Position numbers and translations under genes: made by a program | Notes under the pieces: model-generated | Database searches by the model: none | Told to the model about the DNA's origin: nothing | The model's input: only the letters and a program-made list of their open reading frames with translations | Part shown: piece after piece, positions 5,897 through 34,864 of the stretch | How positions within the stretch are numbered: the stretch's first letter is position 1 | Layout: the number at the start of each line of letters is the position of its first letter | Assembly: GCA_965246715.1 (NCBI GenBank) | Contig: CBDFFH010000005.1 | Location: 96,001-160,000 of the forward strand | Reading direction: 5' to 3' | Source of the DNA: Chamaesiphon sp. | GTDB lineage: Bacteria; Cyanobacteriota; Cyanobacteriia; Cyanobacteriales; Chamaesiphonaceae | Length of the DNA: 64,000 bases

Positions 5897-6000
5897 CTAT
5901 AGCAATCCTAAATGATTCATGAGATTTATTATTCGGTGCGTTACGCTATCGCGATAACACACACTACGATCTTCTTACAAATCAAATAGGACTGCTATAG
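5897..6000. mobile_element. MITE-like element (~104 bp) with an internal REP-like hairpin
   Basis: Imperfect terminal inverted repeats ctatagcaatcctaaatga ... tcaaataggactgctatag; no ORF inside. Confidence 0.6.
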
Positions 6001-6780
6001 ATAAATCTGTATGATTAAATCAAGCCCAGAACATACGCAGAGTATCAAGACGATTGAATACAAGGACAGGAATTCCTTGATTAAAGTTTCATGCTCTTTT
6101 GTTATATTTTTAAGATCTCTATATGAAATATTCATCTTTTCGATAATCTCTTTTCTGTTATGTCCTGTCAAGAACATTTGTAAGATACTAGCCAATTTGA
6201 CATCCGGTCTCGCTCCCATAGAGATCGAGCCAAAAATAGACTCCAGGTCATTATATAATTCTTCTTCACGCTCCGATGTTTTATCTGCGAGGGAATTGAG
6301 ACGGGTTAAACCTTCACAAACATCTAAGTCTAGCGATTCCGTCGTTAATACCTTTTTAAACGAGTCATCTACTTTACGCCGACGAATATTCAAATACTTT
6401 TCTTGAGCATCTTGACTTACCCCTGCTCGACTTTTATTAAATAAATGCTTGAGGTTACGTTTTTCCACTGAACTCTCAGCACGAATAGCATTCCAAATTC
6501 TGCCATCCATCATAGAAATCGACTCGTTAACTGTTTCATTTCTGAGACTACCATCTAGTCCATATGGATTCGGATACTTGGACTTGTCAGCAATCTCTGG
6601 TAAATTTTCCCGACGGAGCCGCTCATATCCCTGATCGATAGCACGAGTAATTTGCTGATGCTGTAGTGAATGCAGATCTTCCTGGGTTCTTTGAAGATCG
6701 AGTGCCGCTAGATATTTTTGCCGTTCCTCAATAGTCTCAGGGAATTCTGGGATATTGGGTGTTGTCATAGTATCCTCCAA
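5995..6780 (-). CDS. Hypothetical protein with a C-terminal sigma region 4-like HTH
   Basis: 261-aa ORF; 'ILQMFLTGHNRKEIIEKMNIS' resembles a sigma4/LuxR HTH. The stop codon lies inside the MITE end. Confidence 0.45.
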   Translation of the reverse strand: MEDTMTTPNIPEFPETIEERQKYLAALDLQRTQEDLHSLQHQQITRAIDQGYERLRRENLPEIADKSKYPNPYGLDGSLRNETVNESISMMDGRIWNAIRAESSVEKRNLKHLFNKSRAGVSQDAQEKYLNIRRRKVDDSFKKVLTTESLDLDVCEGLTRLNSLADKTSEREEELYNDLESIFGSISMGARPDVKLASILQMFLTGHNRKEIIEKMNISYRDLKNITKEHETLIKEFLSLYSIVLILCVCSGLDLIIQIYL

Positions 6781-6902: not shown

Positions 6903-7553
6903 TTATCTCAGAGAATAGAACTTCTTGTATTTTGAGCAACTCTTATCAACCTCTCGTTGTGGGGGGACAAAAGACTCCACGATCGAGATAGATTCATTAA
7001 TCACCTCAGAAATATGTCCTGATGCTAAGTTATTCCATCCCTTTCCTTTTGCGGAGATCGATGACAGCTTCGATCTGCTCGAAACTATATATCTTGCTGT
7101 CGCAATGTCAGCTAATTCCCAATTGCGAGTTCCTAACTGTAATACAGCTTTACTAATCGTCATATCCAGTGCAGACATTACCTCTTGAAGCCGATCGAAT
7201 CCGACTGCGCGGTAATGATTGGCTTCATACTTTTGAATCTGCTGCTCTTGAACTCCGATTTTGTCCGCCAGTTCCTTCTGAGTCATTCCCGCCGCAATTC
7301 TGGCTTCGATCATTACACGTGGGAGATCTCCCAGAGATTCGATCGGAAACTTGGTAATCTGGCCGCTCTTGAGCCGATCATACTCCGCGATTTCCTGCTC
7401 TAATTCCCCAATTAAGATGTTTAAGCTGTTCTTCCGTGCCAGCATCAGTCGAGGATGCAAGTCAGAGTCTGGAGCATCTAGAGCCGATAGGTCGAGCTTG
7501 AGGTTTCTTAATTTAGTCTGAGTGATTTTATATTGACGTTCATTTTGAATCAT
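6903..7553 (-). CDS. XRE-family HTH regulator / antitoxin
   Basis: MIQNERQY..T N-terminus and 'ARIAAGMTQKELADKIGVQEQQIQKYE' HTH; co-oriented behind the nucleotidyltransferase-like gene. Confidence 0.8.
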   Translation of the reverse strand: MIQNERQYKITQTKLRNLKLDLSALDAPDSDLHPRLMLARKNSLNILIGELEQEIAEYDRLKSGQITKFPIESLGDLPRVMIEARIAAGMTQKELADKIGVQEQQIQKYEANHYRAVGFDRLQEVMSALDMTISKAVLQLGTRNWELADIATARYIVSSRSKLSSISAKGKGWNNLASGHISEVINESISIVESFVPPQREVDKSCSKYKKFYSLR

Positions 7554-7563
7554 AGTCTGTGCC

Positions 7564-7977
7564 TCACTGAGTAATGAATTCTTTGGGATCTAAGGCAATT
7601 ACCCCTTTGGGATTACCTTCTCGATCGGTTCGGAAGAAGCCCTCGTAACTTGGTAGATCGAACAGTCTGCCGCCAAATACGATTTGTTGGTCGTTAGCAT
7701 TTTCAACAAACAGAGAATCGAGAGTGTTTGGATCGAGTCCAAAATCGTCATACCAGCCGTCAAAATCATTAGGTTGCTCTTTTGTGGTGACAAAGCTGCC
7801 CCCAAGGATGACCCGCCGACAGCCAGCTATCCCAAGTTTACGCAAAGCAGCCGCTAGACCCGTGGCTAATCTCTGTCGGTGGCGGTTGATGACAAATCTT
7901 TCCATGAATTCTTGCCAGCTAGCTTCATAAACGCCTGGTGGGAGGTATCCTAAGTCGTTGAATTCTGGAATGGACAT
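7564..7977 (-). CDS. DUF6932-like minimal nucleotidyltransferase (putative toxin)
   Basis: 'IP.F...G.LPPG' start, GGSFVT..PNDFD (GS...DxD) motif, 'KG.I.L' end. Confidence 0.75.
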   Translation of the reverse strand: MSIPEFNDLGYLPPGVYEASWQEFMERFVINRHRQRLATGLAAALRKLGIAGCRRVILGGSFVTTKEQPNDFDGWYDDFGLDPNTLDSLFVENANDQQIVFGGRLFDLPSYEGFFRTDREGNPKGVIALDPKEFITQ

Positions 7978-8058: not shown

Positions 8059-11000
8059 TTATGCCATGCCCTGGCAGATAAAGCCAGCCCAATAGAAGGA
8101 GGATTCAAATGGTCGATCCATCGTGCAGTAGCCTTCTAATATTTCTGGTATGGACTCGATCGATTTAATTTTCTGAGTGAGACTCTTCATCGTCTCTGCT
8201 AGCTCTTGCCATTCCTCTGTTTGGTTACTCAGCGTAGATTGTTGCTGGTAAAGTTTTTTTATTTGCTGCTTGAGTGCAGCGATTCTCGCAGAGCTATCAG
8301 CGTTGACATGCTCGATCAGCTTAGGAAAATGATAAAGCTTAAACTCTTCACCAGTAAGATTCCGCAGTCTGTTCTGAGCCGATTGCAAAGATCGAGCGCG
8401 ATCGAGTCCATCTCGTCGTGCTTCGTGATAAAAGATATCAAACAGCGCAGTTACCAAGTCATCGACGCTCCACAGCGTACTTTGGACGCTCCTGGCACCG
8501 ATGCACAAGAAGCCAGTGGTGAGGGTAGCAACATCATCGGTGAAGGTGAATTTGCCCAAATGGGTTTCACAAGCCGAGAGGAAGATTTCATCGAGGTTTG
8601 GGTATTTCTCGCCCATCAACAGATCGCCGAGGGTGATTTTGCCGTCAGCCAGAAATAATGCTGATTCCAAGGGATTTTCTAGGTTGGAACTAGCATGGTG
8701 GCTGGAGTGGAGACGATTGACACGACTCAGGAGTTGACGGTAGTTAGCGATCGTTGCTTGACTCTTACCACGCAGTCGATCGATCTCCAATACGCCATGA
8801 ATTTCGGCAATCTTTTGACCTTCATATCGCGCTCCTAGCAAACTATCATCCGCATCTTCAACGATCCCTTGAGTGCTAGTCAGAATCGGAGATCGATCTT
8901 GGCAGTATTTCAAAATCTGACAACTGGGGATCGATCGGATGGTGAATTTTTCACCGAGTAATTCTTCAGAGTTGCCTGTAGGTAAAGCGGCGAAGGGGAT
9001 TTGGTGGAGGAGCAAATGCGGTACCAAAACTAGTTCTTGGATGTCGCTGAGGTGGTCAGCAATAAGTTGGGGGAGTTGCAGCCGTTCGGCGATCTCTGCG
9101 AGTACTGATGGCATTCGATCGCGCCATGCAGAATTATCTTCTTGTTTGTATGGGTTGAGCCAATTTTCAATCAGCCATTTCTGAAATTCATTCCAGCCTT
9201 GTCCGGTGCAGGTGAATAGCTCCGGCTCTTGGTTTTGCTTGAGGATAAAGATGTGGGTATGGTCGTTGGTGCTATAGCAGGTCAGGATCGCGGTGTGGGC
9301 GTTGGTAATCAGCTTTTGAATCTCGCTGTGGGAAATGGGTGCGATCGCAATCTGTCCGGCAAGTACGGGGTCGTGGGTGCGGATTTTGTCGTAGAGAATT
9401 TGTTTGCGATCGGCTAGGGAATTGATTTTCTCGTTATCTGCTCGTAAGGTTTGGCTATCTCGGCTAGTTTTGGTAGCGGACATGGTTCGATCGCCACCTT
9501 CTCGGAGGTTCTCGATGTCCTCGTTGAGTTGTCGGTATTCGGTCAAATAAGCTTGAATCTCAGCGGGGACTTGGGCATCACCATACAAGTCTTTACTAGC
9601 CATTAGTTCAACGAGTTGACGGCTACGAACGCGCTCGGTGTATTCGATCGCGCTTCGATAGTCTTTCAGGTTAATGGCGCACTGAATAGCATTTTCATAC
9701 ACACTGAGAGCTGTTTGCAAGACACGCTGGCGTTCGGTGTCATTTACCGACCAACTGCGGGATGTTTCAGCGGATTGCATAGCGATTTTATAAGCTTCGA
9801 TTGCTTTTTGCCAATGCTCTTGTTTTAAATAAATATTTCCTATTCCTCTATTAGCTTTTATTACATTTATAGGTAAGGTTTCGGGGGTGAAGATCTCTAG
9901 TGCTTTCAAATAATGCTCGATCGCCAAATCATTTTGCCCTTTTTCTAAGTAGAAAATTGCTATATTTTCTTGAGTTCCTGCCCACTCTATTGGGAAATTT
10001 TCTTTCGTTCTTATTTCTAACGCCGCTTCATAGCAACCGATCGATTTTTCCAAATTTTCAGCCTTATGCCCTTCTATTCTTTCACCATAAACATTTGCCA
10101 GGTTGTTTTGGGTTGTTGCCCATTGTATTGGGAAATTTCCTTTCGTTCTTATTTCTAATGCCGCTTCGTAGCAGACAATCGCTTTCTCCATATTCTCTGA
10201 CTTGTCACCTTTGATTCTGTTTTTATATGAAACAGCCAAATTATTTTGGGTTGTTGCCCACTGTATTGGAAAATCTTCCTTCTTGTATATCTCCAGTGCC
10301 GCTTCATAGCACGCAATCGCTTTTTCTATATTCTCTGCTTTATCTCCTTTGATTCTGTCACTCCATGAACCAGCCAAGTTATTTTTAGTCCCTGCCCACT
10401 GTATGGGAAAATCCTCTTTTGTCCTTATCGACAGTGCCGCTTCGTAGCAAGAGATCGCTTTTTCTATATTCTCTGCTTTATCCCCTTTGATCCTGTTTTT
10501 ATATGAAACAGCCAAGTTGTTTTGAGTTGTTGCCCACTGTATTGGGAAATCTTCCTTCTTACATATCTCCAGTGCCGCTTCATAGCAAGAGATAGCTTTC
10601 TCTATATTTTCTGCTTTATCCCATTTAATTCTGTCACTGTATGCCGCAGCTAGGTTGTTTTGAGTCCCTGCCCATTGTATTGGAAAATCTTCTTTCTTCC
10701 TGATTGACAGTGCCGCTTCATAGAAAGAGATAGCTTTCTCTATATTTTCTGCTTTATCCCCTTTAATTCTGTCACTGTATGCCGCAGCTAGGTTATTTTG
10801 GGTTTGTGCCCACTTCTGAGAATGATTCTCTCTTGTTCTAACCGTTAAAACCGCCACCAAACCCGCTATCACAATCTCCATATTCTGAGCGCGATTTCCC
10901 AGCGGAAACTCATAAAGCCTAATCACTATATTTTCAATCAATGCCACAAAACCTTCTGCATCTTGTGGCTGAGTGGCTACAATCTGCTCTATGTAGATTT

Positions 11001-11400
11001 TCATGATTGCCCCCAAACCCATAGTCAGGCTCTCCAGATTTTGAGCAAATAGTGCTTTAACTTGATGTTCATCCCGTTGTTCTGCTTCAATCAAAGCATT
11101 CAGAAAATCTAAATCCTCTTGCTCGTAATCTTCATTTTGACTCTTATCTTCAATCGCTACACCTAACTGCCCAGCTAAATCCTGAGCAAAATTCACCAAC
11201 CAGTCTACAGTCGCTTCTGCCTCTCGACCATCCCGTTCTGTCAGCATCTCAGCTACAGCCAACAAAGCCATTACCAAATTTTCATCAATCAATTCCGATC
11301 TTTTTGCCAGTAATGTCTGCTCCTCTCCCTCTTGACAATCCAATAATTCTTGCACCAGATCTAAATAATCCTGATATTTCCCGTCTTGCCTTTCCGACAT
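8059..11400 (-). CDS. TPR-CHAT caspase-like protease (2)
   Basis: About 7 46-aa TPR repeats; LHSSHHA / FLSACET; C-terminus closely similar to CHAT (1). ATG at 11400 preferred over the track start 11433. Confidence 0.9.
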   Translation of the reverse strand: MSERQDGKYQDYLDLVQELLDCQEGEEQTLLAKRSELIDENLVMALLAVAEMLTERDGREAEATVDWLVNFAQDLAGQLGVAIEDKSQNEDYEQEDLDFLNALIEAEQRDEHQVKALFAQNLESLTMGLGAIMKIYIEQIVATQPQDAEGFVALIENIVIRLYEFPLGNRAQNMEIVIAGLVAVLTVRTRENHSQKWAQTQNNLAAAYSDRIKGDKAENIEKAISFYEAALSIRKKEDFPIQWAGTQNNLAAAYSDRIKWDKAENIEKAISCYEAALEICKKEDFPIQWATTQNNLAVSYKNRIKGDKAENIEKAISCYEAALSIRTKEDFPIQWAGTKNNLAGSWSDRIKGDKAENIEKAIACYEAALEIYKKEDFPIQWATTQNNLAVSYKNRIKGDKSENMEKAIVCYEAALEIRTKGNFPIQWATTQNNLANVYGERIEGHKAENLEKSIGCYEAALEIRTKENFPIEWAGTQENIAIFYLEKGQNDLAIEHYLKALEIFTPETLPINVIKANRGIGNIYLKQEHWQKAIEAYKIAMQSAETSRSWSVNDTERQRVLQTALSVYENAIQCAINLKDYRSAIEYTERVRSRQLVELMASKDLYGDAQVPAEIQAYLTEYRQLNEDIENLREGGDRTMSATKTSRDSQTLRADNEKINSLADRKQILYDKIRTHDPVLAGQIAIAPISHSEIQKLITNAHTAILTCYSTNDHTHIFILKQNQEPELFTCTGQGWNEFQKWLIENWLNPYKQEDNSAWRDRMPSVLAEIAERLQLPQLIADHLSDIQELVLVPHLLLHQIPFAALPTGNSEELLGEKFTIRSIPSCQILKYCQDRSPILTSTQGIVEDADDSLLGARYEGQKIAEIHGVLEIDRLRGKSQATIANYRQLLSRVNRLHSSHHASSNLENPLESALFLADGKITLGDLLMGEKYPNLDEIFLSACETHLGKFTFTDDVATLTTGFLCIGARSVQSTLWSVDDLVTALFDIFYHEARRDGLDRARSLQSAQNRLRNLTGEEFKLYHFPKLIEHVNADSSARIAALKQQIKKLYQQQSTLSNQTEEWQELAETMKSLTQKIKSIESIPEILEGYCTMDRPFESSFYWAGFICQGMA

Positions 11401-11586
11401 CTTAGTTTCCTCTAAGTTATCAACAACTCCCAAACCACCACAAATTTATACTTCTAAACCTGACTTTCTACCACTTAATTAGCCAGCCTTTTAGTGAAGA
11501 TTAGGCTAGTGGTGCAGATTTCTCAATTTTCCATTACATCCCACGATTGAGCTAGGATCGTATCATCCAATTATGTAACATTGGCT

Positions 11587-11978: not shown

Positions 11979-12224
11979 CTAACCCTTATTTTTGCGTAGA
12001 TGCTGCTTCTGAGCTAACTTTCGGCGTGATTTCCGCGTACCCTTCGCCGCCTTCTTCGCCTTATACTCAGCCTTCGTTTCCTTCCAAGCTTCCCGCGCCG
12101 CCGTCCCCATCAACAACCGAAATATTAGCGGTGCAAAAGCCTGAGCCGGAGGTGCCGTCGCACCCACAACCACCGCCGAAGCCGCAGCACCACCAGCCAA
12201 ACCAAATAATTGTCTACGATTCAC
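11979..12224 (-). CDS. Small Tat-signal cationic peptide
   Basis: NRRQLF twin-arginine motif, Ala/Gly/Val h-region, AQA cleavage site; GGAGG RBS before the GTG; Lys/Arg-rich mature part. Confidence 0.65.
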   Translation of the reverse strand: MNRRQLFGLAGGAAASAVVVGATAPPAQAFAPLIFRLLMGTAAREAWKETKAEYKAKKAAKGTRKSRRKLAQKQHLRKNKG

Positions 12225-12244
12225 AATCTTGCCTCCAGTAATAG

Positions 12245-12655
12245 TTAGAAGTATTTCGCCAGCACACCTTTCTTTCTTCCTCGCGCCATCGCCCGTTGCG
12301 GACGACTGCGATTGTCATTGGTAATTTCAAACCGTAAGTGTTTGGGATTGATGCTTCCCCGTTTCATCGGATGATGCCCGATATCATAGCCCTTGGGATT
12401 TTTGAACCGAGGGAAACCAGTCTTCCCCTTCCGCTGCCAGCGATTCAACTGACTTTGCAATGCACCGCGAATAAATTTGGGCTGCTTGGGGTTGATTAGT
12501 GCCCCGCGCATAAACAGTTGTCTGGCCTTTCCCCAGCCACGCGGAGATTTTGCTTCGGCTGGCTGCCCAGAAGCTAATAAAACCAACAGCACCAGCAGGG
12601 CTGCCATATATTTACCAAAACGATTCGCCACAGGCGACGCTACACGATCGAACAC
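12245..12655 (-). CDS. Small secreted protein with a polymorphic-toxin nuclease-like motif (Ntox8/GH-E HNH-like)
   Basis: Sec signal ending AEA|K; 'PKQPKFIRG...NPKGYDIGH...NPKHLRFE...NRS'. Confidence 0.55.
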   Translation of the reverse strand: MFDRVASPVANRFGKYMAALLVLLVLLASGQPAEAKSPRGWGKARQLFMRGALINPKQPKFIRGALQSQLNRWQRKGKTGFPRFKNPKGYDIGHHPMKRGSINPKHLRFEITNDNRSRPQRAMARGRKKGVLAKYF

Positions 12656-12889: not shown

Positions 12890-15800
12890 TTAGGGCAAGC
12901 CTTGGCACGTAAATGCAGCCCAGTAAACTGGGTCAGAGAATGGGCGATCTTGACCACAGAGATATTTCAAGTTTTCGGTCATGTCTTCGACTTTTTGGAG
13001 CCGCTCGAATGATGCTTCAGCAGCTTTCTCCCCTTTGGTTAGCTCTACATCATGGGCGCGGGATAGTTGCTCGCGGTTAATTTCCAGACATGCTTCTAGC
13101 CGCTCACCGTAAACATTATCCAGAGTGGCACCAGAGAGCTGGCGGAGCTGCTGCTGGGCAGCTTGGAGGGCGCGGGGTCGATCGAGTCCCCGTTTTCGTT
13201 GTTCGTAGTAGAAGATGCACATCAGGGCAGCGGAGAGTTGATCTACCGACCAGAGGGTGGCGATGACGGTTCTGGCTCCGGCACAGAGGAAGCCGCTGGC
13301 TAGGGTGAAGACTTCATCGGTGGTGGTTTGGCTGATGCCAAAGGCGGTTTCGCAGCAGGACAAAAAGACTTCTTGGAGTCCGGTGAGTTGCCAAACTAGG
13401 AGTTGAGCCAGGGTGATATTGCCATCGGCGAGGGCGAGGCTGGATTTGAGGGGTTCGTTGGGGTTGGAGCTGGCATGATGGTAGGAATGGAGGATGTTGA
13501 CGGTCTGGGCGAGTTGTTTGAAGTTGTCGATCGTGGCTTCCGTTGTACCGCACAGGCGTTGGGCTAAGGGAATGTTCAGGAGGGTGGCGATCTCTTCGCC
13601 CTGGAAGATCCCATAGGGTACGTCGAGGCTTGCTCCTTCGATGATGCCGTAGTTGAGGTTGACATTAAGTTCTGGTCGATCGTCACAGATTTTGAGAATT
13701 TCGCAACTAGGGGCATAGCGGATGGTAAAGCGATCTCCTAGAAGTTTTGCTCCATCTTTAGTATTGGTTGGGAGCGCGGCAAAGGGGATTTGATGGAGGT
13801 AGAGGTGGGGAATGAGGATTAGGTCGGTGATGGTGTCATCTAGGTGTTGAGCGATGAGGGTGTCGATCGATAGTCGATCGCTACATTCTTGCAAAAATGG
13901 TGTGATTTGTTTCGACCATTCTCTGTAATTTTTATCGGCATAATAGGGTTTAATCCATTGTTCCAAAATTGCATTATGGAAGGTATCGAAGCCTTGGTCG
14001 GGACAATGGTGGACGGCGATCTGAAGTTGTTGTTGGGAATCGCGGCGGGCGATGAAGATGAAGGTATCGGTGGGGGTGGAGAAGAAGCTGAGGAGGGCGG
14101 TGTGGGTATCCTTGCCTATGAGTTTGTTGATATCCGCGATCTCTAGGGGGAGGATGCGTTTACCAGCGGCGGCGATCGGATCTTGACGACGGAGTTCTTG
14201 CCAGAGGGTGGTTTGTTGGGCTTCTAGAGCGGTGACGTGCTGTTGCTCGATCTCACTGATACTGGGGCGGAGGGTATCCAGGGTGAGGGTTTGGGAATTG
14301 CCATCGAGTTTGTGATAAATGGCATCGATTTGACGCTGGAGGGCATCGTAGGCATCGAGTTTCGTTTTGATGTCGGTGGGGATTTCGCCTTTCTGATAAA
14401 AATCATTGACGCGCATCAGGTCGGAAAGCCGCTTAGAACGGGATCGTTCGGCGTATTGGAGGGCTTCGGGGTAGCGATGGAGTTGAATTTGGGCTTGGAC
14501 GATGTTGGTATAGACTTCGATCGCGTTAGATTGGACTTCTTCCCGATGGCTTTCTTCCCTAGACCAAGCACGACTTTGTTCGATCGCTTCAATTGCCAAG
14601 CTGTAACCTTCGATGGATATTTCCCAGTTGCCTAATTTAAAGCCCAGATTGCCAAGAGTTCGACCAGTTCTCAAGCAATCAGCGGCTAGGGTGTTGGGGT
14701 TGAAGAATTGGAGAGCTGCACGGTAGGATTCGATCGCCAGGTTGTTGTTCGCCTCTGGTTCCACTCCCATTTCGGCGAGGATTAAATAGGCGTTTCCCCG
14801 ATTAGTGAGGGTAGAAGAGAGGTTGCGGGTCAGACCAGCAGCACTTCTAATCTCAGCAGCTTCATCATAATCGGCGATCGCACTGCGGAGATTGGTCATT
14901 CCATCCACACCCATTTTGGCGAGGATTAAATAGGCATTTCCCCGATTATTGAGGATGGATGAGAGGTCGCGTGTCAGTTTGGCAGCCCGTCTAATCTCGG
15001 CAGCTTCATCATAATCGGCGATCGCCCTGCGGAGATTAGTCACTCCATCCACTCCCATTCCGGCGAGGGTTGAATAGGCATTTCCCCGATTATTGAGGGT
15101 AGAAGAGAGGTCGCGTGTCAGTTTGGCAGCCCGTCTAATCTCGGCAGCTTCATCATAATCGGCGATGGCGAGGTAGAGATTAGTCACTCCATCTACACCC
15201 ATATCGGCGAGGGTTAAATAGGTATTTCCCCGATTATTGAGGGTAGAAGAGAGGTCGCGTGTCAGTTTGGTAGCCCGTCTAATCTCGGCAGCTTCATCAT
15301 AATCGGCGATCGCCCTGCGGAGATTAGTCACTCCATCCACCCCCATTCTTCCGAGGGTTTGATAGGCAGCACCTCGATTAGTAAAAGTTTGAGCGCGTTT
15401 GGGTTGATTGTTCCGAATCAGGTTGAGGACGATCTCATACCCAGCCACTGCAATTTCATTCACCTCTAGAAATTTGCCATAGGGAAATTTCTGTAGGTAA
15501 ATGCAAATATTTCCAAGCATTCCCGCCATGGACTCCGATTCCTGGGGGTGCTGCGCTAGGATATCGGCCACAAATTGCCCCATCGCCGCACCCAAGGATC
15601 GATCCACCTGAGCCAAATTATTACACATTAAATTATGAATGGTGACAGTAGCCTGTCCCTCATTTTCCATTTCGGCTAAGATTAGCTGGTGCAAAAATTC
15701 CCTTGCGCCCTGCTCGCTCTTACCTAGCAAATAGCGGGTCAATTGAGTCGCCGAATCCTGTAAAAATCTGGCTTTATTGCTCTGCCTCTCTCCCAGCATC

Positions 15801-15946
15801 TGTGCCGCTACATCCTCCATTACAGCAACTAACCCCATATCTATCAATTCCTGCTGGGCATTCAGCACATCATTTTCTTCCCCATGAGGGCAAGTCAAAA
15901 GTGCCTGAATCAATTCCAAATAAGCCCGTAATCTTTGTTCGTCCAT
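12890..15946 (-). CDS. TPR-CHAT caspase-like protease (3)
   Basis: 48-aa TPR repeats (144-bp period, e.g. gagaggtcgcg at 14961 and 15105); LHSYHHA / FLSCCET; VYWAAF end. Confidence 0.9.
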   Translation of the reverse strand: MDEQRLRAYLELIQALLTCPHGEENDVLNAQQELIDMGLVAVMEDVAAQMLGERQSNKARFLQDSATQLTRYLLGKSEQGAREFLHQLILAEMENEGQATVTIHNLMCNNLAQVDRSLGAAMGQFVADILAQHPQESESMAGMLGNICIYLQKFPYGKFLEVNEIAVAGYEIVLNLIRNNQPKRAQTFTNRGAAYQTLGRMGVDGVTNLRRAIADYDEAAEIRRATKLTRDLSSTLNNRGNTYLTLADMGVDGVTNLYLAIADYDEAAEIRRAAKLTRDLSSTLNNRGNAYSTLAGMGVDGVTNLRRAIADYDEAAEIRRAAKLTRDLSSILNNRGNAYLILAKMGVDGMTNLRSAIADYDEAAEIRSAAGLTRNLSSTLTNRGNAYLILAEMGVEPEANNNLAIESYRAALQFFNPNTLAADCLRTGRTLGNLGFKLGNWEISIEGYSLAIEAIEQSRAWSREESHREEVQSNAIEVYTNIVQAQIQLHRYPEALQYAERSRSKRLSDLMRVNDFYQKGEIPTDIKTKLDAYDALQRQIDAIYHKLDGNSQTLTLDTLRPSISEIEQQHVTALEAQQTTLWQELRRQDPIAAAGKRILPLEIADINKLIGKDTHTALLSFFSTPTDTFIFIARRDSQQQLQIAVHHCPDQGFDTFHNAILEQWIKPYYADKNYREWSKQITPFLQECSDRLSIDTLIAQHLDDTITDLILIPHLYLHQIPFAALPTNTKDGAKLLGDRFTIRYAPSCEILKICDDRPELNVNLNYGIIEGASLDVPYGIFQGEEIATLLNIPLAQRLCGTTEATIDNFKQLAQTVNILHSYHHASSNPNEPLKSSLALADGNITLAQLLVWQLTGLQEVFLSCCETAFGISQTTTDEVFTLASGFLCAGARTVIATLWSVDQLSAALMCIFYYEQRKRGLDRPRALQAAQQQLRQLSGATLDNVYGERLEACLEINREQLSRAHDVELTKGEKAAEASFERLQKVEDMTENLKYLCGQDRPFSDPVYWAAFTCQGLP

Positions 15947-15974
15947 GAGTATCTCCAATATTTTTAACGCAAAC

Positions 15975-16820
15975 CTAGTTAGATCGATGTTGCCGAAACC
16001 AAGCCGCCACCTTCAACGCCAGCGATTTGTCAAAGTCAACGCTTCCCGATCGCAGTTCCCCCTCTGCCTTAACTGATTCCACCTCATCCTCATCACTCAA
16101 AACCACCAGCTCCCGCTCTCGCACCTCTGACTGTTGTTGCAACTCCTGCAAATACACCTCCACCCGCCGATTTTGTAAATCTGGATTAGATTCCAGCAAA
16201 AATATTTGTTCCAAACTTGCCACAATCCCATTCAAAGCTCGATCGGCGAACTGTGCCTGTACCTCCTCTAGCAGTCGATCTTCACTATCCTCCACCACCG
16301 TCATCACCCGCTGAATCGTCCGCAAATAACTGGGCAAAGACTCCACCGACTGCTTCCGAAACTGCCGTACACTCAGAGCCAACGTATTCGAGGGATATTC
16401 ATAAACGAATCCCAGCAACTGCGCTCGATCGAGCATCGCCCCAAACCCCACCGCTACATAAGCCACCCGATCCTCCACCGCCGTCAACGGAATTTCCACA
16501 GGCACACCACGATCCAATAACACCGGACGGCATTCGATTTTACCTACACCCACTACTTCTAAATCGGCCACATCGATCGGTGTCGCCAAACTCGGTTGCC
16601 AACTATCACTCGCCGCCCAATTGGTGTCAATTCCTGCTTCCTGCAAAAAACTTTCCACCGCATAAACCGCCAGCGTATTCAGATAAACCTTTTCCGCCAA
16701 ATCCACATTCGGCATTCCCACCGCAAACGATCGCGCCTGAAGTTGCACCGCCGTGGGAATCGAGATTTCGATTACATTACTTGTCATCATATTTTTCCTG
16801 GGTAATACAAAATTGCTCAC
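15975..16820 (-). CDS. DUF1822 family protein
   Basis: Typical 'ARSFA...KVYLNTLAVYAV..FL...SDSW...DVADL...GKIECRPV...DRVAYVAV...LLGF'. Confidence 0.8.
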   Translation of the reverse strand: MSNFVLPRKNMMTSNVIEISIPTAVQLQARSFAVGMPNVDLAEKVYLNTLAVYAVESFLQEAGIDTNWAASDSWQPSLATPIDVADLEVVGVGKIECRPVLLDRGVPVEIPLTAVEDRVAYVAVGFGAMLDRAQLLGFVYEYPSNTLALSVRQFRKQSVESLPSYLRTIQRVMTVVEDSEDRLLEEVQAQFADRALNGIVASLEQIFLLESNPDLQNRRVEVYLQELQQQSEVRERELVVLSDEDEVESVKAEGELRSGSVDFDKSLALKVAAWFRQHRSN

Positions 16821-16825
16821 AACAC

Positions 16826-17899
16826 CTAACCAAAAAACACGCTAACCATCTTGGCTAAAGGCTTCTGGCACTTCCGCACCCAAAAATCCGCCAACATCTC
16901 CGCCGTCAGCTTCTTGTAACCAAACCGCTCCTGTGCCAACTTAGCGATCGCCTCAAAATCCACAGGCGGATCGCTATAGATCCAGAGATGCTGCTGTGCC
17001 ACAAACTGCACCGTCACCTTGGGCATCTTGTTCTTTATTGGTGTCTGCAACACACAATTGGTATCTCGATCGATATCCTCCCGCACCATCGCCGATTGCT
17101 CGTCCGTCAACAAATTAGGCTCTAACAACAACGACTGGGCGCGAGGCACCACATGACGTTCATAAAAAGGGTAAAACTTGTGATATTTCATGCCGTATGC
17201 CGTGGCTAGATCTGTTAGATCGTCCGGTGGCCGTTTAAATCCCATCCGCCACAACACATCTCGCACCGTACAGGTTGGACAGTCAGCATGACTGAAATCC
17301 AACAACTCCGAACTGCCATTTTCTATCAACTCCAGCCACCGATTCTTCGTAACTGATAAATCTTGTGCCAGCATTTCTCTCAAATCTGAGGCTTGGGGTT
17401 GTTCCGCAAAATCTTGCCAATCTAACTGCTCGTCCAGCGATGAGAGTTGATCTCGCTTTTGCTTTCTAAAATAATTGCTGACTGTTGCTTGCACCGCATA
17501 GCGAAAATAGGTACGACAGCAACCCACAACACTAAATCCCGTCGGCGAAAACTTCGGCAAAGTGATTTGCATAAAGTACAAACAACTATCTTGGGCAAGA
17601 TCTTCGATCGTTACTCGATCCTTAATTCCCCACTGCCGAATCCAGTAATAGAGGAACTGGAGCTTATCCCCAGTCAGCAACGGAAACACCTGACCCTCCA
17701 GCCGTTGCTGGACGATTGGGGACGACGCAGCCAACAACTCCGTCAAGATCTGCTTGAACTGGGAGTCTTCAGAGGTCAGACTCGATCGACTTTCCAAACA
17801 ATCATACAAATGCTGCCAGATAGATGAGTGCGATCGAGTCTCTTTCAGAGACACTTCGTGAACGGACATAGGCGGCGAAACCTCTTGTTGTATTACCAT
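16826..17899 (-). CDS. Sigma-70-like protein with a duplicated C-terminal HTH domain
   Basis: Region 2-like 'IEDLAQD..LYF....KFSP....TYF.Y....SSLD' followed by two similar ~80-aa units. Start uncertain (17899 or 17869). Confidence 0.6.
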   Translation of the reverse strand: MVIQQEVSPPMSVHEVSLKETRSHSSIWQHLYDCLESRSSLTSEDSQFKQILTELLAASSPIVQQRLEGQVFPLLTGDKLQFLYYWIRQWGIKDRVTIEDLAQDSCLYFMQITLPKFSPTGFSVVGCCRTYFRYAVQATVSNYFRKQKRDQLSSLDEQLDWQDFAEQPQASDLREMLAQDLSVTKNRWLELIENGSSELLDFSHADCPTCTVRDVLWRMGFKRPPDDLTDLATAYGMKYHKFYPFYERHVVPRAQSLLLEPNLLTDEQSAMVREDIDRDTNCVLQTPIKNKMPKVTVQFVAQQHLWIYSDPPVDFEAIAKLAQERFGYKKLTAEMLADFWVRKCQKPLAKMVSVFFG

Positions 17900-20567: not shown

Positions 20568-21842
20568 GACAAATCTTGACAGATAAAATCTGCCCTTTCA
20601 TAAGAATTGCGGAAAATAGGTCAAACTACGACTCAGCAGCATCTTTCTTTAAAATGGATGTTTCTGCGGAAATCCATTCAGATGGAATCAATGCAGTACC
20701 ATTGCGCCAACGTTCCACTACAGCTTCTTCATACCAAGTTTCTGCAATATCAGCGTGTTCGGTGATAATTATTTGGAAGTTGGGCTGAAGTTCTTCCACA
20801 ACATCTCTTATCAGCTCAAACATGCGGACGACCGCCGCCCTATCTTCATCACCAAGATCTGTTGCAGACCGTTGTATATTTTGTTCTGCGGGGAAATATA
20901 CCTGCGATGGTTGATCCAAGAATAGAAAATGTGGAACTGGCCTAGACTTTTTGACAAACCACAAATGGAGAGCAAGATGAGCGATCAAATGGCAACCTAC
21001 CCAGTTAGCTCCACTACCCATTCGATCCATGCGGATAGGCCCACCATCGGTATCTGCGACTACTTGTAAATTTCGCAGATCCAATCGAAATGGATTGCCA
21101 CTATGCTCAAGCTCTAGTTGATTTGACCATATAGTCATATCTTTTGAGATAACAGATAAAATCGAGTCCAGACGCTCCTGAAGATTATCGTTACTTAGGT
21201 TTGCCGCTAGCTGTTTTATCTCAGATTGGAGTTTGGAGATCTCTGTTCTTAATTCAGATGAATCAGCAATCTGCGGGAGAGTTTCGAGAAATAAGCTAAT
21301 TCTTCCAATTACATAAGCCCTACGAGAAGAATTATGTCTTAGTTCCATTAATCTATCATCTGCATCTCGTAAGGCTTCAAGGACACTTCTATTCTCCCGC
21401 AACAGTCTCTTTGTATCAGTAATCTTCTGTTCTTGATCGATTATTAACATCTCTAGACCTGGAGTGTGCCTGATAACTTGGTCGAGTTGTTTTGATGCTG
21501 TTTGTAGCTCTACTTCTAGAGTGTTGAATGATGGAATATCTGTAGGCCGATCGCATAATGGACAGCAAGGTTGCTCTGCAACATTAAAAAGTTGAAGACT
21601 TGTAAGTCGAGAAACCTGCTCTCCAACTTCTTTTTCAAAACTGCCTTTATCGGAAAGTAGAATTTTCATACCCTCTAAATCATCCTTTTGCCGAGCAAGT
21701 TGCTCTCGGAGATCTGTGCGTTCATCATTTAGTCTTAAAAGTTCTGATTGATCGATACTCTGTTCGTAGCGAGTGAGCTGTTCTTCCGGTGAAGTCTTTA
21801 TCACTGTACTTAGTAATTCAATGGCCGCACCCCAAGAATCTG

Positions 21843-23257
21843 GGTTCTACCGAACTTACTATGCTAAATCAAGGATTGAAATGCCATGCTAGCAAACTTC
21901 TGATCTGAAAATTCTCAAAATTTCTAAACCCATATCCCATTCTTTTTATTAGCTTGAGTTTATTGTTAATTCCTTCGACGACTCCTTGAGTTGTTCTATT
22001 ATCAAAATAGGCAATTATTTCACCAATCCATCTTTTAATAGTTCCACAACTCTTGGGGAATTTCCCACAAGCATTCTTGAGCCAGTCACACAAGCTTATT
22101 AGCCCATTTCCCCAATCTGTTTTTGATTCAAATATATCTCTAAATAACTCTTTTGTTTTGTGCATTGCTGCTAATTCTGGAAAAACGTCTCCAATCTCTT
22201 TCAACTTCTCTTTTTGCAATTCATTCAAATCCGCTTCGTTTTTGAGTATTGCATATTTACTGTGAGTTAATGCTGCTAATTTCTTGTTCTTTTCATCTTT
22301 GTTCTTCACCCTCTCAGCCTCTCTTTTGATTTTAATTCTCTCTCGATCTAACTCTTCATTTATCTGTTTCATTACATGAAATCTGTCTCCAACCACTTCA
22401 GCATTTGGTATCAATTCATTTACCAGACTTTTGTATGATGAAAATAGATCGATACTTACTTCTGTAATTTGGTTCAAAACCTCCGAACCCCAAGACTTCA
22501 AGCACTCACCAATACATTCTTGAGTCCTTTTTGGTAAGATGGCTATTAACTCTCTTTTTTCTAGATCTACTAACACCGCACAATAGTTTTTTTGCCCTTT
22601 AACAAAGGCAATTTCATCAATTCCTAGTCTGGTTAAATTCTCTGGCTTTTTTTGCACTAGATTTACCCCAGCTTTTTTGATTATTGTCTCCACTTCTTGC
22701 TCACTTAATCCATTTCTTTTGGCAACACTTTTAATATCACTAGCTAGACTCTCTTCGACAATCTTCTGCTTCATTCGCTCGGTGAAATGACTTCTCTTTT
22801 TGATGAAATTTAATTCCTCACTGAATTTTCGACCACAACTCATACACTTGAATTGACGACGATTAATTTTAAGGTAAACATCATGTTCACCGAATGGTAG
22901 ATCTCTCACTGTTAATTGGTGATTCTCATGAAGTTTATTACTTTCAGTTCCACAATGAGGACACACTGCTTTTAATTGCTGATTTTCTAGATAAATAAAA
23001 TAACCGATTTCATCTAAGATCTTATAAGCAGTGACGGTCATTCCGTCGATATTAAGAATTTCATTAATGGTTTTTAGTTGCGATTTGGATGACATAATGC
23101 AATTCAAGCTTATTTGTTGCCAGAAATCAAGATCTTACTATTCTATAATAAAATCTGTCATTTATGCTGCACCAAGCTTCCATAACTCAAAATTATCAAT
23201 TTTGTCAATTAAACTTGATTCTTATCCACTACTTAGCATAGCAAGTTCGGTAGAGCC
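21843..23257 (-). mobile_element. ISL3-family insertion sequence (1415 bp)
   Basis: 25-bp inverted repeats ggttctaccgaacttactatgctaa / ttagcatagcaagttcggtagagcc (23/25 match); 8-bp target duplication agaatctg at 21835-21842 and 23258-23265. Confidence 0.95.
21869..23107 (-). CDS. ISL3 transposase
   Basis: CPHCG...C..C zinc finger, LGIDE, DRFHV, EGINNKLKLIKR.GYGFRNF. Confidence 0.95.
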   Translation of the reverse strand: MNCIMSSKSQLKTINEILNIDGMTVTAYKILDEIGYFIYLENQQLKAVCPHCGTESNKLHENHQLTVRDLPFGEHDVYLKINRRQFKCMSCGRKFSEELNFIKKRSHFTERMKQKIVEESLASDIKSVAKRNGLSEQEVETIIKKAGVNLVQKKPENLTRLGIDEIAFVKGQKNYCAVLVDLEKRELIAILPKRTQECIGECLKSWGSEVLNQITEVSIDLFSSYKSLVNELIPNAEVVGDRFHVMKQINEELDRERIKIKREAERVKNKDEKNKKLAALTHSKYAILKNEADLNELQKEKLKEIGDVFPELAAMHKTKELFRDIFESKTDWGNGLISLCDWLKNACGKFPKSCGTIKRWIGEIIAYFDNRTTQGVVEGINNKLKLIKRMGYGFRNFENFQIRSLLAWHFNP

Positions 23258-24018
23258 AGAATCTGGAGCTTCATCTAAAGCCAATAGTCCAACATCTCGC
23301 CCTTCTGAAAGCAGTGCAGATGCTTCACTAATTCCTCCACTTGCCATAGATTCAAGTCGAGCTAGTGCAAGTTCCTGTTTCTGCAATGAACGACGTAGTT
23401 CTCTAAGTCTTGCTTTCTCAGCCATATAGTTTTCATCTACTACTCCGAGAAAGTATGGCAACGTATCTTTGATTGCTTGTGCAGTCCAATTATCGCTTTG
23501 TTTATGAAATAGAAAACCAGGCTGGCTAATTTCATGTTGAGGCTGGAATGCGAAGATAAGCGCATGTCTGAGTGTTGTCGTTAGGGGAGGTCGGGTTTGT
23601 CCATCAGGAGGTTCATGAACACTGAGATCGATACCGACAATACCTTTCAATTGCTCAATCAGAGTTTCAATGTTAGTTGTAACAGAGAGCCGATCTGCGG
23701 GAGGAATGGTTATTGTTGAACCCACCATATAGTAAGCTCCTGAGTTGCTTACTTTTCCAGGATCTGGTGCGCGACGTGCAATGAAATACTCGGCAGAACC
23801 ATCAGTAAGTCGGAGTGCATACCAGCCAACACTATTTCTAATAACTCCTTCTGGGACAGCACATGATGAGCTGCCCAGGCAGTAATCAACTATGCCAATC
23901 AAAGCAGATTTTCCTGTTTTCGAGTCCCCTGTAATTATATTGATTGCACCAGGACGAAGTGACAACAGACGGCGTTCACCCTGCAATGAATACAGGATAA
24001 TATCAAGGATCTGAATAC

Positions 24019-24519
24019 TCAAGGAGCAACCCCCCAGAGAGCCATGATGGTTGAGTATTCACCGGAGGATGCAAACCATTTGCCCACGAACTTAGCCTTT
24101 TTCATACAATCATTAACTTCCTCTGAAGCCTGTGTCAAGAAACTGTTCATCGAACGCGGTCGTGTTGCCGCAAGGATTTGTGAGGAAGATAATTCAATTA
24201 ACTTACCATTTGCACCAAATAGTATACCTTCTTTGATCAGAGGTACCAAGGCTGTTGCTCGTTCCGCGAAGCGAACATGAGCCTGTGGATTTTGGACAAG
24301 CCAAGTAGCCATAGATGTTCTGGTTGTTCTCGGCAAACTTTCTCGCGTAGCCTTGTGTAGAGTCACAGGCATTGCAATGAATGTTAAAGGATAAGGAATG
24401 CCTCGTTCCGTGACACTGCTATATCCTTCACTACAAGACCAAAGCAGTGCGGCAAGAAACGCGGGATTAAGAAGTCGAGCTTGCTCGACGGATCTATCTG
24501 ACCATATAGGAGTACTCAT
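24019..24519 (-). CDS. lmuC: Lamassu/ABC-3C middle component (LmuC-like)
   Basis: 'LLNPAF', 'PVTLH..TR..LP', terminal 'LWGVAP'; 4-bp overlaps with both neighbours. Confidence 0.8.
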   Translation of the reverse strand: MSTPIWSDRSVEQARLLNPAFLAALLWSCSEGYSSVTERGIPYPLTFIAMPVTLHKATRESLPRTTRTSMATWLVQNPQAHVRFAERATALVPLIKEGILFGANGKLIELSSSQILAATRPRSMNSFLTQASEEVNDCMKKAKFVGKWFASSGEYSTIMALWGVAP

Positions 24520-25727
24520 GTGACCCCCTTCGGCTCAAGAATCTGCTGAAGATGCTGCATGAATTCAGGATGCCACCCAACTTTTAGCCGATCGGATAGC
24601 ATGTGAAATGACCCCCTGGTCATGCTTGGATGCTGGACTTGGGAACGAATTGGAAAAGAACTGTTTTCAACCCAAGCATAGATCTTTCGAGCAACTTCTC
24701 GCTTGATTTCCTCAGATTCGTTCTCACCAAGCTCATCAGATATGCGGTCAAACTGAAGCTCCCATTCCTCTCGTAGCAATTGCTCATACCTATCGAGTTC
24801 ACCAACTAACACCAGATCCTCTCGCACCCATCGGGATCGTTGTTCAAAGGCACGGTAGTAGTCCCGAATCGCGGCGAAGATTCGTTTATTGCCAATACCA
24901 ACCATTCTCACCTGATGGACAAAAACAGCATCTTCGTAAGCTGTCACGTCAACATCAGCACTCAAAATATCCTGATCTACAGGAAGAGCATCAGGATTAA
25001 ACTGCTCACGAAGAATATCAAATTCGCCTTCAATTTCGCTGCTAAGGATTGGAGATGAACTTGAGTCGTTCAATTGCCTAATCACTCGCTGATACCACCA
25101 ACCTTCGAGCCTTGTTAGAAAAGAGTCAAGATGGTTGCGTCGCACTGCGAGGCGAGCCTCTGAGCGAAGAGCGTCCTCAACACGAACAATATTTGGTGCA
25201 TTGGGAAATATGACAACAGAACCGATCAGTGCTGCTTGCTCATCTGGTTGAAGGCACCGAAATAGCTTATACGCTGGTTCATTCTTCTGGTTGCTAGAGG
25301 TATTTACTGTTGCTCGTAACCGATCGAGAGCCTTCACTTCATCGCGATTATCGATCGTCAGATAGCTAGCTGAAGAACCTTCACCAACTTTACTAGTCGT
25401 AATCAAATACAGCTTTGCATCTTTAGGAATTTTTTGATTTTCTCGACCCTCAATCCAAACTCGTAAACTCTTCCATATGTCAGGACTCGCATCAGTCAAG
25501 CTTGCTGCACGATCGCAGTGATGCTTCATCTGCAACAACTCGGATGCCGAGCCATCACGATCGAAGACAACATCATCAAGTGTCTCCAGGTAGGCTGCAA
25601 ATTCTTCATTTTGAGCAAGACGTTGAAGAGATGATAGCAACGCCCACCTCACTTGGTATAAGTACCCAAGTGCAGCATCGGTAGCGGAAAAATCAGTCTG
25701 TGTTTGTGAGTTTGAAGCCACTAGCAT
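24516..25727 (-). CDS. lmuA: Lamassu effector LmuA: Cap4-like PD-(D/E)XK nuclease plus ABC-3C C-terminal domain
   Basis: 'A...ALGYLYQ', 'ETLDDV', 'QMKHH' nuclease motif; C-terminal 'RGSFHML.D...GWHP'. Confidence 0.8.
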   Translation of the reverse strand: MLVASNSQTQTDFSATDAALGYLYQVRWALLSSLQRLAQNEEFAAYLETLDDVVFDRDGSASELLQMKHHCDRAASLTDASPDIWKSLRVWIEGRENQKIPKDAKLYLITTSKVGEGSSASYLTIDNRDEVKALDRLRATVNTSSNQKNEPAYKLFRCLQPDEQAALIGSVVIFPNAPNIVRVEDALRSEARLAVRRNHLDSFLTRLEGWWYQRVIRQLNDSSSSPILSSEIEGEFDILREQFNPDALPVDQDILSADVDVTAYEDAVFVHQVRMVGIGNKRIFAAIRDYYRAFEQRSRWVREDLVLVGELDRYEQLLREEWELQFDRISDELGENESEEIKREVARKIYAWVENSSFPIRSQVQHPSMTRGSFHMLSDRLKVGWHPEFMQHLQQILEPKGVT

Positions 25728-26767: not shown

Positions 26768-28765
26768 TTAATGGAATGGTGTTTTGAGCTGAATTGGGGA
26801 AGATTGAGGCATAACCACTGTCGTCTTTTCGATCCCCAGAATAGATCGATATGCTGTATCTAGTAGACCGACATAGTGCTCCGCCCAGTATGGCTCGGTA
26901 GTAGTTTCTAGGGGATAACTGGCAAGCACTTTACCCGTTTTGGAATGGCAACGCTTACCTTCCGTAAGCCAGTAGCTCACACGATCTCCTGGCTTGCCAA
27001 TGCCCAGTTCTACCAAATTCTTCTCCGCAGAGCCGATTTTCCGATTGATAGTCAGATCGGCTACATCGATCCGGCGATCGATTAATAACGACCGAGTCTG
27101 GTGGTAATATTCATCAGCCGCTTGGGGCGATTCAATAAAATAGAGCCGCAGGAATTCGATCGGGAATTTATTCTCCAAGGGGTAACGATTCCGCTTTCTG
27201 AATAGTCCCTTAACCGTAGTTTTACCACTGGGATGAACGATCACATAGCTCTTAGCTTTGGGTGCATATAAACCGCAATCAGTTAGCTCTAGATCGATGT
27301 TGATCCCAGTAGGCAACGACCCAGAAACAAGCTCCTTAACTGTCTCTGGGTCATTATGACTAAATAACACCCCGTCGGTATCAATCTCGATCACTACGCC
27401 ACCGCAACTAGTTACCACTTCAACCATCAGATCCAAGATCTTCCGCCCGTAGGCGGTCACTAGAGCCGCCGCTTCGTAATCATTGAAAGTATAGAAACCA
27501 GTCCCCATAAACCCATATGAGCCGTTAATCAGAATCTTCAGCGATTTCTCTTGAAATGCTGCCGATTTGTCCCCAGATTTAGCCAATGCTTTGAGTTTTA
27601 ACCGTGCATCAACCATGTAAGCCAGTGCCCCCAGAAACTTATTCCCGTTATCTTTGCGACTACAGATCCCATATCTGAGCATGATCGAAGGATAGAGACT
27701 GGATACATCGATTTTGGCAACTTGCTGGTGTAGCCCTGGTGCCACTAGTTCGACCTTCCCACCATCATATTTAAGCGGCTCATCCGATTGAGGATTCAGC
27801 CGAGGTAATAATTTCTCGTGAATCTTCTGAGCTTTGAGTGCTGGCGAGGCGATCGCAATTTGCTGGAATGACAGCGCAGGCACATAAGCCAATTGATAGT
27901 ACACGACTGGTAACAGAAATTCAGCGAGTAGTTGCGTATCATCGAGATCGAATTTCAGATAATTCTCGATCGTCTCAGTATCGCCCGATTCCCAGCACTC
28001 GCGAATCTGGTTGACAGATAGTTCTAATCGTCTGTCATCTCTTAGCCCCAGTGCAATAACACTAGATTTGAGGTCATATCGATCGAGTCTTGCAGCTTGC
28101 TTATCCCAAATAGCGATCTGTTGGTAGGTATCGAGAATGTTAACACCACTCCAATAAATCGGAGTAAATTCGATTGGCTTACCATTCACAGTTGAAGAAG
28201 TGATCCGGCTGGTTTTATTACCCTTGCGGAACAGTTGAGAGATATTATGAACCCGACAGCGATCGGCTAAAAAGGGCAAATCGAAGTTAATCAGGTTATG
28301 ACCGATCAGGCATTCTGGTTGATGTTGCTTGAGGTGCTTGATCGTTCGAGCAAGCAGCGTCTTCTCATCTGGGTCTTTCAGGATAGTTATCTCTCCTTGA
28401 TTGTTAAGCAACCCAACCATTAATACTCGATCTGTTTTGGGATTTAACCCAGTCGTTTCGATATCAATGTAAATCTTAGTCAATTCCTCATAGGGTTTGA
28501 GTTTTACGGATGGCTGCCACTGGGGAATAAGTGTCTGGGGTTGATAATCGAGGGACAACCGATCGAGGTCAACTTCGACGCGCTCGCTAGTAATAGTGAC
28601 AGCATTCCGAGGATTGGGATGTAAAATCTCAACCACTCGATCCCGATTGATTATTTTCAAGTTTCCATCATCATCGGCGATAACTATTCTGACACCATGT
28701 ACCTTCAAAACCTCCCTGCTCAAGCCCTTAGCACTAGTAACGATCGATCCTACTACAATGTTCAT
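26768..28765 (-). CDS. Family B DNA polymerase with 3'-5' exonuclease
   Basis: Exo I DIETTG, Exo II HN..NFD, Exo III Y..FD; polymerase motifs DVSSLYPS, K...NGSYG, DTDG, K.Y and KG. Confidence 0.92.
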   Translation of the reverse strand: MNIVVGSIVTSAKGLSREVLKVHGVRIVIADDDGNLKIINRDRVVEILHPNPRNAVTITSERVEVDLDRLSLDYQPQTLIPQWQPSVKLKPYEELTKIYIDIETTGLNPKTDRVLMVGLLNNQGEITILKDPDEKTLLARTIKHLKQHQPECLIGHNLINFDLPFLADRCRVHNISQLFRKGNKTSRITSSTVNGKPIEFTPIYWSGVNILDTYQQIAIWDKQAARLDRYDLKSSVIALGLRDDRRLELSVNQIRECWESGDTETIENYLKFDLDDTQLLAEFLLPVVYYQLAYVPALSFQQIAIASPALKAQKIHEKLLPRLNPQSDEPLKYDGGKVELVAPGLHQQVAKIDVSSLYPSIMLRYGICSRKDNGNKFLGALAYMVDARLKLKALAKSGDKSAAFQEKSLKILINGSYGFMGTGFYTFNDYEAAALVTAYGRKILDLMVEVVTSCGGVVIEIDTDGVLFSHNDPETVKELVSGSLPTGINIDLELTDCGLYAPKAKSYVIVHPSGKTTVKGLFRKRNRYPLENKFPIEFLRLYFIESPQAADEYYHQTRSLLIDRRIDVADLTINRKIGSAEKNLVELGIGKPGDRVSYWLTEGKRCHSKTGKVLASYPLETTTEPYWAEHYVGLLDTAYRSILGIEKTTVVMPQSSPIQLKTPFH

Positions 28766-28826
28766 TTAATCCTCCAGTTCAATTGCTCCGTCGTAGTTTG
28801 CATCTCATTCAATCCGCGTAATTAGC

Positions 28827-34863: not shown

Positions 34864-34864
34864 T

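Follow-up and report, generated by a model that had tools for sequence, protein, structure and literature searches.

A 64,000-nucleotide stretch of the Chamaesiphon sp. contig CBDFFH010000005.1 (positions 96,001 to 160,000, called the window below) carries on its minus strand a trio of genes for a sigma-like protein (16826-17899, 357 aa from ATG), a DUF1822 protein (15975-16790, 271 aa) and a TPR-CHAT protein with the features of a caspase-like protease (12890-15946, 1018 aa). The DUF1822 protein belongs to a short type that ends in a helical tail, here named H. Across cyanobacterial loci the tail class of DUF1822 predicts the class of the neighbouring protease, and H recurs at the end of antitoxin-like proteins. 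As the tail co-varies with the protease class and recurs on antitoxins, DUF1822 is predicted to be an anti-sigma factor and protease substrate, and H is probably a portable tag for recognition and cleavage. In the proposed switch, DUF1822 would hold an extracytoplasmic function (ECF)-type sigma factor inactive until the TPR repeats sense a cytoplasmic signal and the protease becomes active. The protease would then recognise the H tail and cut at an Arg in its flexible loop, whereupon DUF1822 would lose its stability or undergo degradation, leaving the sigma factor free for RNA polymerase. On H-tagged antitoxins the same cut would free the toxin instead.

The trio had been noticed in a sequence-only reading of this DNA as three tightly spaced, co-oriented genes forming a candidate protease-triggered transcription switch. 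Their arrangement is confirmed, with all three genes unbroken and ATG-defined gaps of 35 and 28 nt; relatives of the sigma-like protein begin at the same motif as its assigned start codon. Conservation of the neighbourhood, which that reading had named as a check, is also borne out. We collected 159 DUF1822 loci, the best 80 genome and 79 metagenome matches to an H-type query, whose proportions are not representative, and kept 137 complete distinct genes after 17 identical and 7 cut ones were dropped. A sigma-like gene lies directly upstream in 112 of the 116 genes with enough upstream DNA, a linkage far above chance.

The tail/protease relation was counted in the 64 DUF1822 genes flanked by 5 kb or more of upstream and 4 kb or more of downstream DNA. 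Proteases with an N-terminal CHAT domain and CHASE2, kinase, STAND or PBP domains were labelled EACC2-type from this architecture. Genes with only a beta tail were found with an EACC2-type CHAT protein in 38/42 cases and with the TPR-CHAT clade in none of the 42, while genes with only H adjoined a TPR-CHAT in 8/8 and an EACC2-type protease in 0/8. Where both tails are present, both proteases were found in 7/10, only the EACC2-type in 2/10 and neither in 1/10; four of the 64 genes have neither tail. DUF1822 is modular, and its tail class predicts the neighbouring protease class. A quick and weakly resolved tree of the core requires eight changes for H, only two of them imposed by branches with good support. 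The distances of H and CHAT correlate with a Mantel value of 0.57, which is confounded by kinship and not leaned on. One EACC2-type protein in the sample (L071:9282-15257, 1991 aa) carries a RelA/SpoT module fused, together with STAND and TPR, to CHAT.

For the converse count we took 200 genomes of the order, scored 10 protease candidates per genome and asked whether an H gene lies on the strand of the clade protease at a distance of up to 10 kb. With a cut of 410 bits that was set after viewing the list, 47/55 proteases at or above it had a nearby H, compared with 2/13 in the middle band of 380-410 bits and 1/44 TPR-CHATs below 380. By genome, 38 held both, one only the protease, 17 only H and 144 neither. 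These controls bear on the notion that the genes merely travel together on mobile islands, with H as a passive fusion. TPR-CHATs are indeed abundant, with tens of CHAT candidates per genome, and the element that carries the trio holds three further clade proteases without a detected tagged partner of their own. Co-travel alone nevertheless leaves the near absence of H beside lower-scoring TPR-CHATs, the predictive tail class and a locus-matched graft of H in locus L210 (described below) unaccounted for; it is already largely refuted by the tail/protease and low-score controls, and we regard it as highly improbable.

The carriers of H were surveyed with a DUF1822-derived H profile over the loci collected above and 80 additional regions. 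Besides 65 distinct DUF1822 proteins, 60 of them encoded behind a sigma gene, H was found on 17 helix-turn-helix (HTH) antitoxin-like proteins (encoded after a Gp49/HigB-like gene in 16 cases and after a DUF6932 gene in one), on the second protein of two unnamed pairs (five carriers in pair A, 34 in pair B) and on three others, one of them a TRADD-N protein. The longer H fusions detected are DUF1822 proteins. Each kind of effector/partner pair observed has H at the end of its second gene, the place of the inhibitor. In HigBA-type pairs the Gp49/DUF891 toxin comes first and the HTH antitoxin second; the 16 H-tagged pairs share this domain content and gene order, and differ in an antitoxin that bears the extra domain of about 100 residues and lies beside a dedicated caspase-like protease. 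Profile comparison of antitoxin-borne with DUF1822-borne H (hhalign 99.7%, E 1e-25) indicates that the two are homologous. A profile built from antitoxin-borne H only matches 57/62 H-type and 0/102 other DUF1822 proteins, a separation that is partly circular in that the H labels came from a mixed profile.

At L210, a locus of the same genus, the HTH antitoxin and the DUF1822 protein share H as a near-copy (54% identity over 145 aa, 75% over 343 nt), while the window antitoxin, 49% identical to that of L210, has no H. Here, H has been grafted in a way that matches the local protease. Pair A combines a protein of 127-139 aa with an H carrier of 194-196 aa (L204:7471-8471, L205:5343-6313, L208, L223 and L227), adjoins a clade protease in 5/5 cases and is possibly a new toxin-antitoxin family. 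Pair B combines a 230-aa protein with an acidic H carrier of 140-190 aa (L206:4536-5756, L213-L216, L276-L303) and occurs with a decayed H in 35/37 genomes of one cyanobacterial family, where protease and loop Arg are usually lost. Pfam, NCBIfam and PADLOC gave no name for the proteins of either pair, and their putative roles as toxin and antitoxin follow from position and size only. The beta tail may be portable as well: the supplement rows seen of Kaur et al. (PMC8195603) list, next to EACC2-caspases, fusions of TRADD-N with a part annotated as DUF1822, which is consistent with such mobility. H may well be a transferable degron grafted by cyanobacteria onto any inhibitor, be it an anti-sigma factor, HigA, another antitoxin or TRADD-N, which would thereby come under the control of a single clade of caspase-like proteases with TPR sensors, with the beta tail as a parallel code for EACC2-caspases, although we put this general form forward only tentatively.

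H itself comprises about 100 residues, and the loop ahead of its last helix bears an Arg, mostly as N/T/D-R-D/E. In the window, the profile and the structural model place the tail with its disordered loop, the proposed protease-recognition tag, at 15978-16325 (-); model residues 235-249 have a predicted local distance difference test score (pLDDT) below 50, a helix edge lies at 224-235, and Arg224 and Arg226 (16113-16121) are the putative cut sites. Outside DUF1822, the loop Arg is present in 27/28 carriers with an adjacent protease versus 13/25 without one (six not scorable); within pair B the figures are 6/7 and 10/22. DUF1822-borne tails have it in 42/49 (13 not scorable). We weighed these data against a role of H as an uncut docking adaptor, in which case the protease would cleave itself, the sigma factor or toxin, or a third protein. 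All co-occurrence data fit docking as well as cutting, the Arg is absent from some protease-linked tails, adaptor domains associated with effectors are common in cyanobacterial conflict systems, and auto-peptidase activation was proposed for EACC2-caspases by Kaur et al. (PMC8195603). An adaptor gives no account, however, of an Arg that sits in a low-confidence loop and decays in pair B when the adjacent protease is lost, and the CHAT protease HetF likewise cuts after an Arg (PMC9457339). We consider docking without cleavage unlikely.

A Pfam search with 70 members of H gave no common family, though its fold may still be known; the best match among Protein Data Bank sequences had an E of 0.04, and the ESM Atlas returned no usable match. 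Weak matches of H to separase helices (Z about 5) lay within the helical background and were not used.

Several observations weigh against a tag that is read and cut by the adjacent protease, in addition to the retrospective 410-bit cut and its sparse middle band. By the rule used, 7 of the 49 scorable DUF1822-borne loops have no Arg. The H of the window is divergent: it is the best match in the genome with both profiles, but with the antitoxin-only one its E is no better than 0.12, and the alignment of its loop Arg is ambiguous. When the window H was compared directly by profile, antitoxin-borne H gave 83.8% (49 columns) and DUF1822-borne H 95.8% (92 columns). The commonest carrier, pair B, is mostly found without a clade protease (27/34), and 31/85 H matches have no listed clade protease within 10 kb. 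At L079 and L119 an H-type DUF1822 stands beside a TPR gene without CHAT domain, and the other DUF1822 of the window gets no H score. Related genomes are not independent, so that counts are inflated and P values overstated. Two further points concern DUF1822, whose homology to PatU is not demonstrated and which mostly retains the residues D76 and E86, compatible with nuclease activity; both are taken up below. Finally, all support for the protease switch is genomic: the binding of DUF1822 to the sigma factor and of H to the protease, the cut and its site, the degradation after it and the trigger are what we infer.

The DUF1822 protein of the window matches PF08852 with an E of 1e-28, covering profile positions 1-212 of 370 only. 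Its model (pLDDT 86, predicted template modelling score (pTM) 0.84) places a PD-(D/E)xK nuclease fold in the core (16326-16763), where residues 29-165 match I-Ssp6803I with Z 9.4 and a root-mean-square deviation of 2.9 over 119 residues. Hjc-type resolvases follow at Z 6.7-7.8, with further PD-(D/E)xK family members in the list. The label of DUF1822 as a TPR protein in Kaur et al. (PMC8195603) finds no support in this model. Conservation was D76 in 146/154, E86 in 148/154 and R88 in 144/154 sequences. Mapped by eye, these residues presumably stand at the D...(D/E)xK motif, the motif Lys being replaced by Arg and the acid of the first helix, a helix that itself served as the search pattern, by Val.

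Such a core raises the question whether DUF1822 is the effector, a latent nuclease or DNA-binding protein freed by cleavage, with the sigma factor as its inhibitor or as the activator of their own cassette. The fold and the conserved D76, E86 and R88 suit this idea, and effectors activated by protease cleavage as zymogens do exist (bioRxiv 2025.11.14.688446). Against it stand the core Asp, missing from L210 and from the second DUF1822 of the window although the partners of both are intact, and the place of H, which in all pair types observed is the second gene, where the antitoxin is encoded. The replacements of Lys and of the first-helix acid speak against it too. The core is likely an inactive pseudo-nuclease, and we find an effector role quite unlikely.

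The sigma-like protein matches TIGR02937 with an E of 3.6e-6, under the cut-off. In fold searches with its AlphaFold model (pLDDT 81, pTM 0.50), nearly all of the top 25 matches were sigma factors at Z 5.6-7.1, each middling singly, and the best Foldseek match had an E of 0.014. The layout comprises sigma-2 at about 40-150, sigma-4 at about 172-263 and a second sigma-4-like module at about 265-357, and a profile of ordinary partner sigmas matches the C-terminal module twice. As modelled, the gene codes for a sigma factor of the ECF type with a doubled sigma-4 module. The tandem module (16826-17107) occurs in 4 of 133 partner sigmas scored, one of them from a beta-tail cassette, and could recognise a -35 element of extended or double form. 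No promoter motif above shuffles was found upstream of H-type sigma genes (37 sequences). A close homologue was found in none of 40 related genomes, and a sigma search of metagenome contigs gave no match. Orthology with HetZ was rejected, as NF037963 matches other loci in the genome and hhalign gave 0.2%.

The TPR-CHAT gene matches PF12770 with an E of 5e-37 (128 bits). Numbered from the TTG at 15958, its product has TPR repeats first and CHAT at residues 699-1020 of 1022, without the N-terminal CHAT arrangement of the EACC2-type. The dyad of His828 (13475-13477) and Cys869 (13352-13354) is invariant in 49 clade members and aligns with the motifs of solved Csx29-family CHAT proteins (E 5e-13). 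A caspase-like protease is predicted, cytoplasmic by its domain content. Recent tandem TPR-like repeats in the N-terminal half, at 14760-15368 (4.2 copies of 48 aa or 144 nt, 87% alike) presumably act as the sensor.

Three known systems resemble the trio. Cyanobacterial trios of a sigma factor, DUF1822 and an EACC2-caspase were catalogued in 2021 by Kaur et al. (PMC8195603), and the window likewise has an ECF sigma gene followed by DUF1822, plus a caspase-like protease. The genome holds six or more trios of the catalogued kind at other loci. EACC2-caspases carry N-terminal EACC2 and caspase domains with C-terminal sensors, whereas the window protease has TPR repeats followed by CHAT; its DUF1822 has a helical tail where the EACC2 partner has a beta tail. 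The text and supplement rows seen of that paper contain no link to antitoxins (PMC8195603), unlike the H-tagged antitoxins described here.

In Anabaena PCC 7120, PatU3 inhibits the ECF sigma factor HetZ (PMC13342950), and HetF cuts PatU3 after Arg117, the pieces of which are said to be further degraded (PMC9457339). The trio shares with it a CHAT protease, an inhibitor gene right after an ECF sigma gene and an Arg at the cut, here a candidate one. HetF is, in contrast, membrane-anchored and unlinked, while the window protease is clustered with its predicted partners, and the window sigma is not HetZ, for which the genome has separate HetZ-like genes. Comparison of PatU with H-type DUF1822 gave 0.2%; a weak match to DUF1822 (2.8%, E 0.016) is confined to the beta tail, which is absent here. 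In one weak PatU alignment (L161:2829-3605) the Y-R-S cut motif falls over A-F-R-S preceding the DUF1822 beta tail. There are hints of a shared ancestry of PatU and the beta-tail module.

Sigma release is also known from the Csx29/Csx30 system of type III-E CRISPR. In that system Csx29 and Csx30 occur with an RpoE-like sigma factor (PMC11127173), and the window trio shares with it the TPR-CHAT architecture, the dyad and the sigma output. The window protease scores 68 bits against NF041237 (Csx29; cut-off 300), neither Cas7-11 nor another cas gene was found among the window open reading frames (ORFs) scanned, and NCBIfam and fold searches revealed no similarity of DUF1822 to Csx30. What had been proposed as a protease-triggered switch by analogy to these systems is supported in its linkage, sigma fold and intact dyad, but DUF1822 is not demonstrably a homologue of PatU3 or Csx30. 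In the defence modules MBL, Pepco, EACC1 and CATASP, a protease cut activates the effector itself (bioRxiv 2025.11.14.688446). As in these modules, a protease stands beside a dedicated, here predicted, substrate in a defence setting; here, however, it is the inhibitor that bears the tag, which passes from one inhibitor to another, unrelated one.

The trio lies in an element of about 46 kb integrated at tRNA-Val. A CpcG linker marks the host as a cyanobacterium. Its right end holds a tyrosine integrase, the right attachment repeat (34995-35052) and the tRNA-Val (33709-35079, minus strand); the 59-bp repeat (96.6%) overlaps the tRNA gene and has its partner copy at G000:C5:85039-85097. The element contains two trios, paralogous TPR-CHATs, Lamassu and two toxin-antitoxin-like pairs, so the island described in the sequence-only reading is found much as stated. 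Profile searches show that the second sigma-like/DUF1822 pair reported at 1-1318 is real, with the 3' part of the sigma-like gene at 1-498 (sigma-partner profile, E 1e-5) and a divergent DUF1822 gene at 554-1318 (plus strand; PF08852, E 7e-5; tail without a score against the H profile). Its own TPR-CHAT lies just upstream of the window (G000:C5:92156-95587), which completes the second trio. Two more TPR-CHATs between the pairs were also found as described, at 2861-5815 (984 aa) and 8059-11433 (about 1113 aa), both on the minus strand and in the same clade, with 46-aa repeats and 32-34% identity to the trio protease. The Lamassu genes LmuA (Cap4-like nuclease), LmuC and LmuB occupy 20626-25727 (-), with LmuB interrupted by an ISL3 transposase at 21869-23107. 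A DUF6932/HTH pair lies at 6903-7977 (-), untagged in the window but with an H-tagged homologue in genome G014, and the other pair is RES/Xre.

Further genes were noted in and around the element. A 261-aa ORF (5995-6780, minus strand) directly upstream of the TPR-CHAT at 2861-5815 weakly matches the partner-sigma profile (E 3e-4) and is possibly a third sigma-like gene without DUF1822. Two small basic ORFs of 81 and 136 aa (11979-12655, minus strand), the first with a Tat-like leader, gave no match in Pfam and NCBIfam; the HH...N...NRS motif of the second resembles a nuclease toxin. The element also encodes a family B DNA polymerase and a primase-like/DUF3987 protein (26768-31595, minus strand), and directly past the left repeat (G000:C5:78979-84950) there is another integrase element, which includes a primase-like gene. 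Elsewhere in the genome, seven further DUF1822 genes have upstream sigma-like genes (G000 C20, C27, C31, C37, C44, C49 and C9); an EACC2-type CHAT follows five of the seven, and genes for secreted proteases or two-partner secretion are often close by.

Defence or severe stress is the favoured trigger. Defence is suggested by the integrated element, by a patchy distribution and by alternative outputs that are toxin-like. The same switch could also answer to a housekeeping, developmental or general stress cue in place of an invader, a difference that affects only the trigger and leaves the proposed mechanism as it is. The proven cyanobacterial precedent, HetF/PatU3/HetZ, is developmental, CHASE2, kinase, PBP and RelA domains are found in the sister EACC2 systems, and pair B with its decayed H is near-universal in one family. 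We nevertheless judge such a cue somewhat unlikely, given that the protease clade is patchy in the host genus (6/26 other genomes, many of them incomplete), that the trio sits in an integrated element with Lamassu and toxin-antitoxin pairs, and that the other outputs are toxin-like.

The trio with an EACC2-caspase was already known and the HetF/PatU3/HetZ logic proven experimentally; new here are the tail/protease code, the nuclease fold of DUF1822 and the H-tagged antitoxins. We found no literature on any of these or on H, in a search outside which most subscription papers lay. The importance of the finding rests mostly on the portable tag, and if only the sigma trio holds, a catalogued system is modestly extended. 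It is still not settled by what route a specific cue activates type II toxins, and a protease reading an antitoxin tag would, if true, answer this directly. A single sensed signal would in that case set off a toxin, a transcription programme or both, as a bacterial counterpart of a caspase cutting ICAD, and an orthogonal pair of protease and tag would be of use as a tool. For cyanobacteria, the switch names a candidate substrate for part of their large unexplained TPR-CHAT expansion, gives DUF1822 a predicted fold and role, and would link heterocyst-type sigma control to defence.

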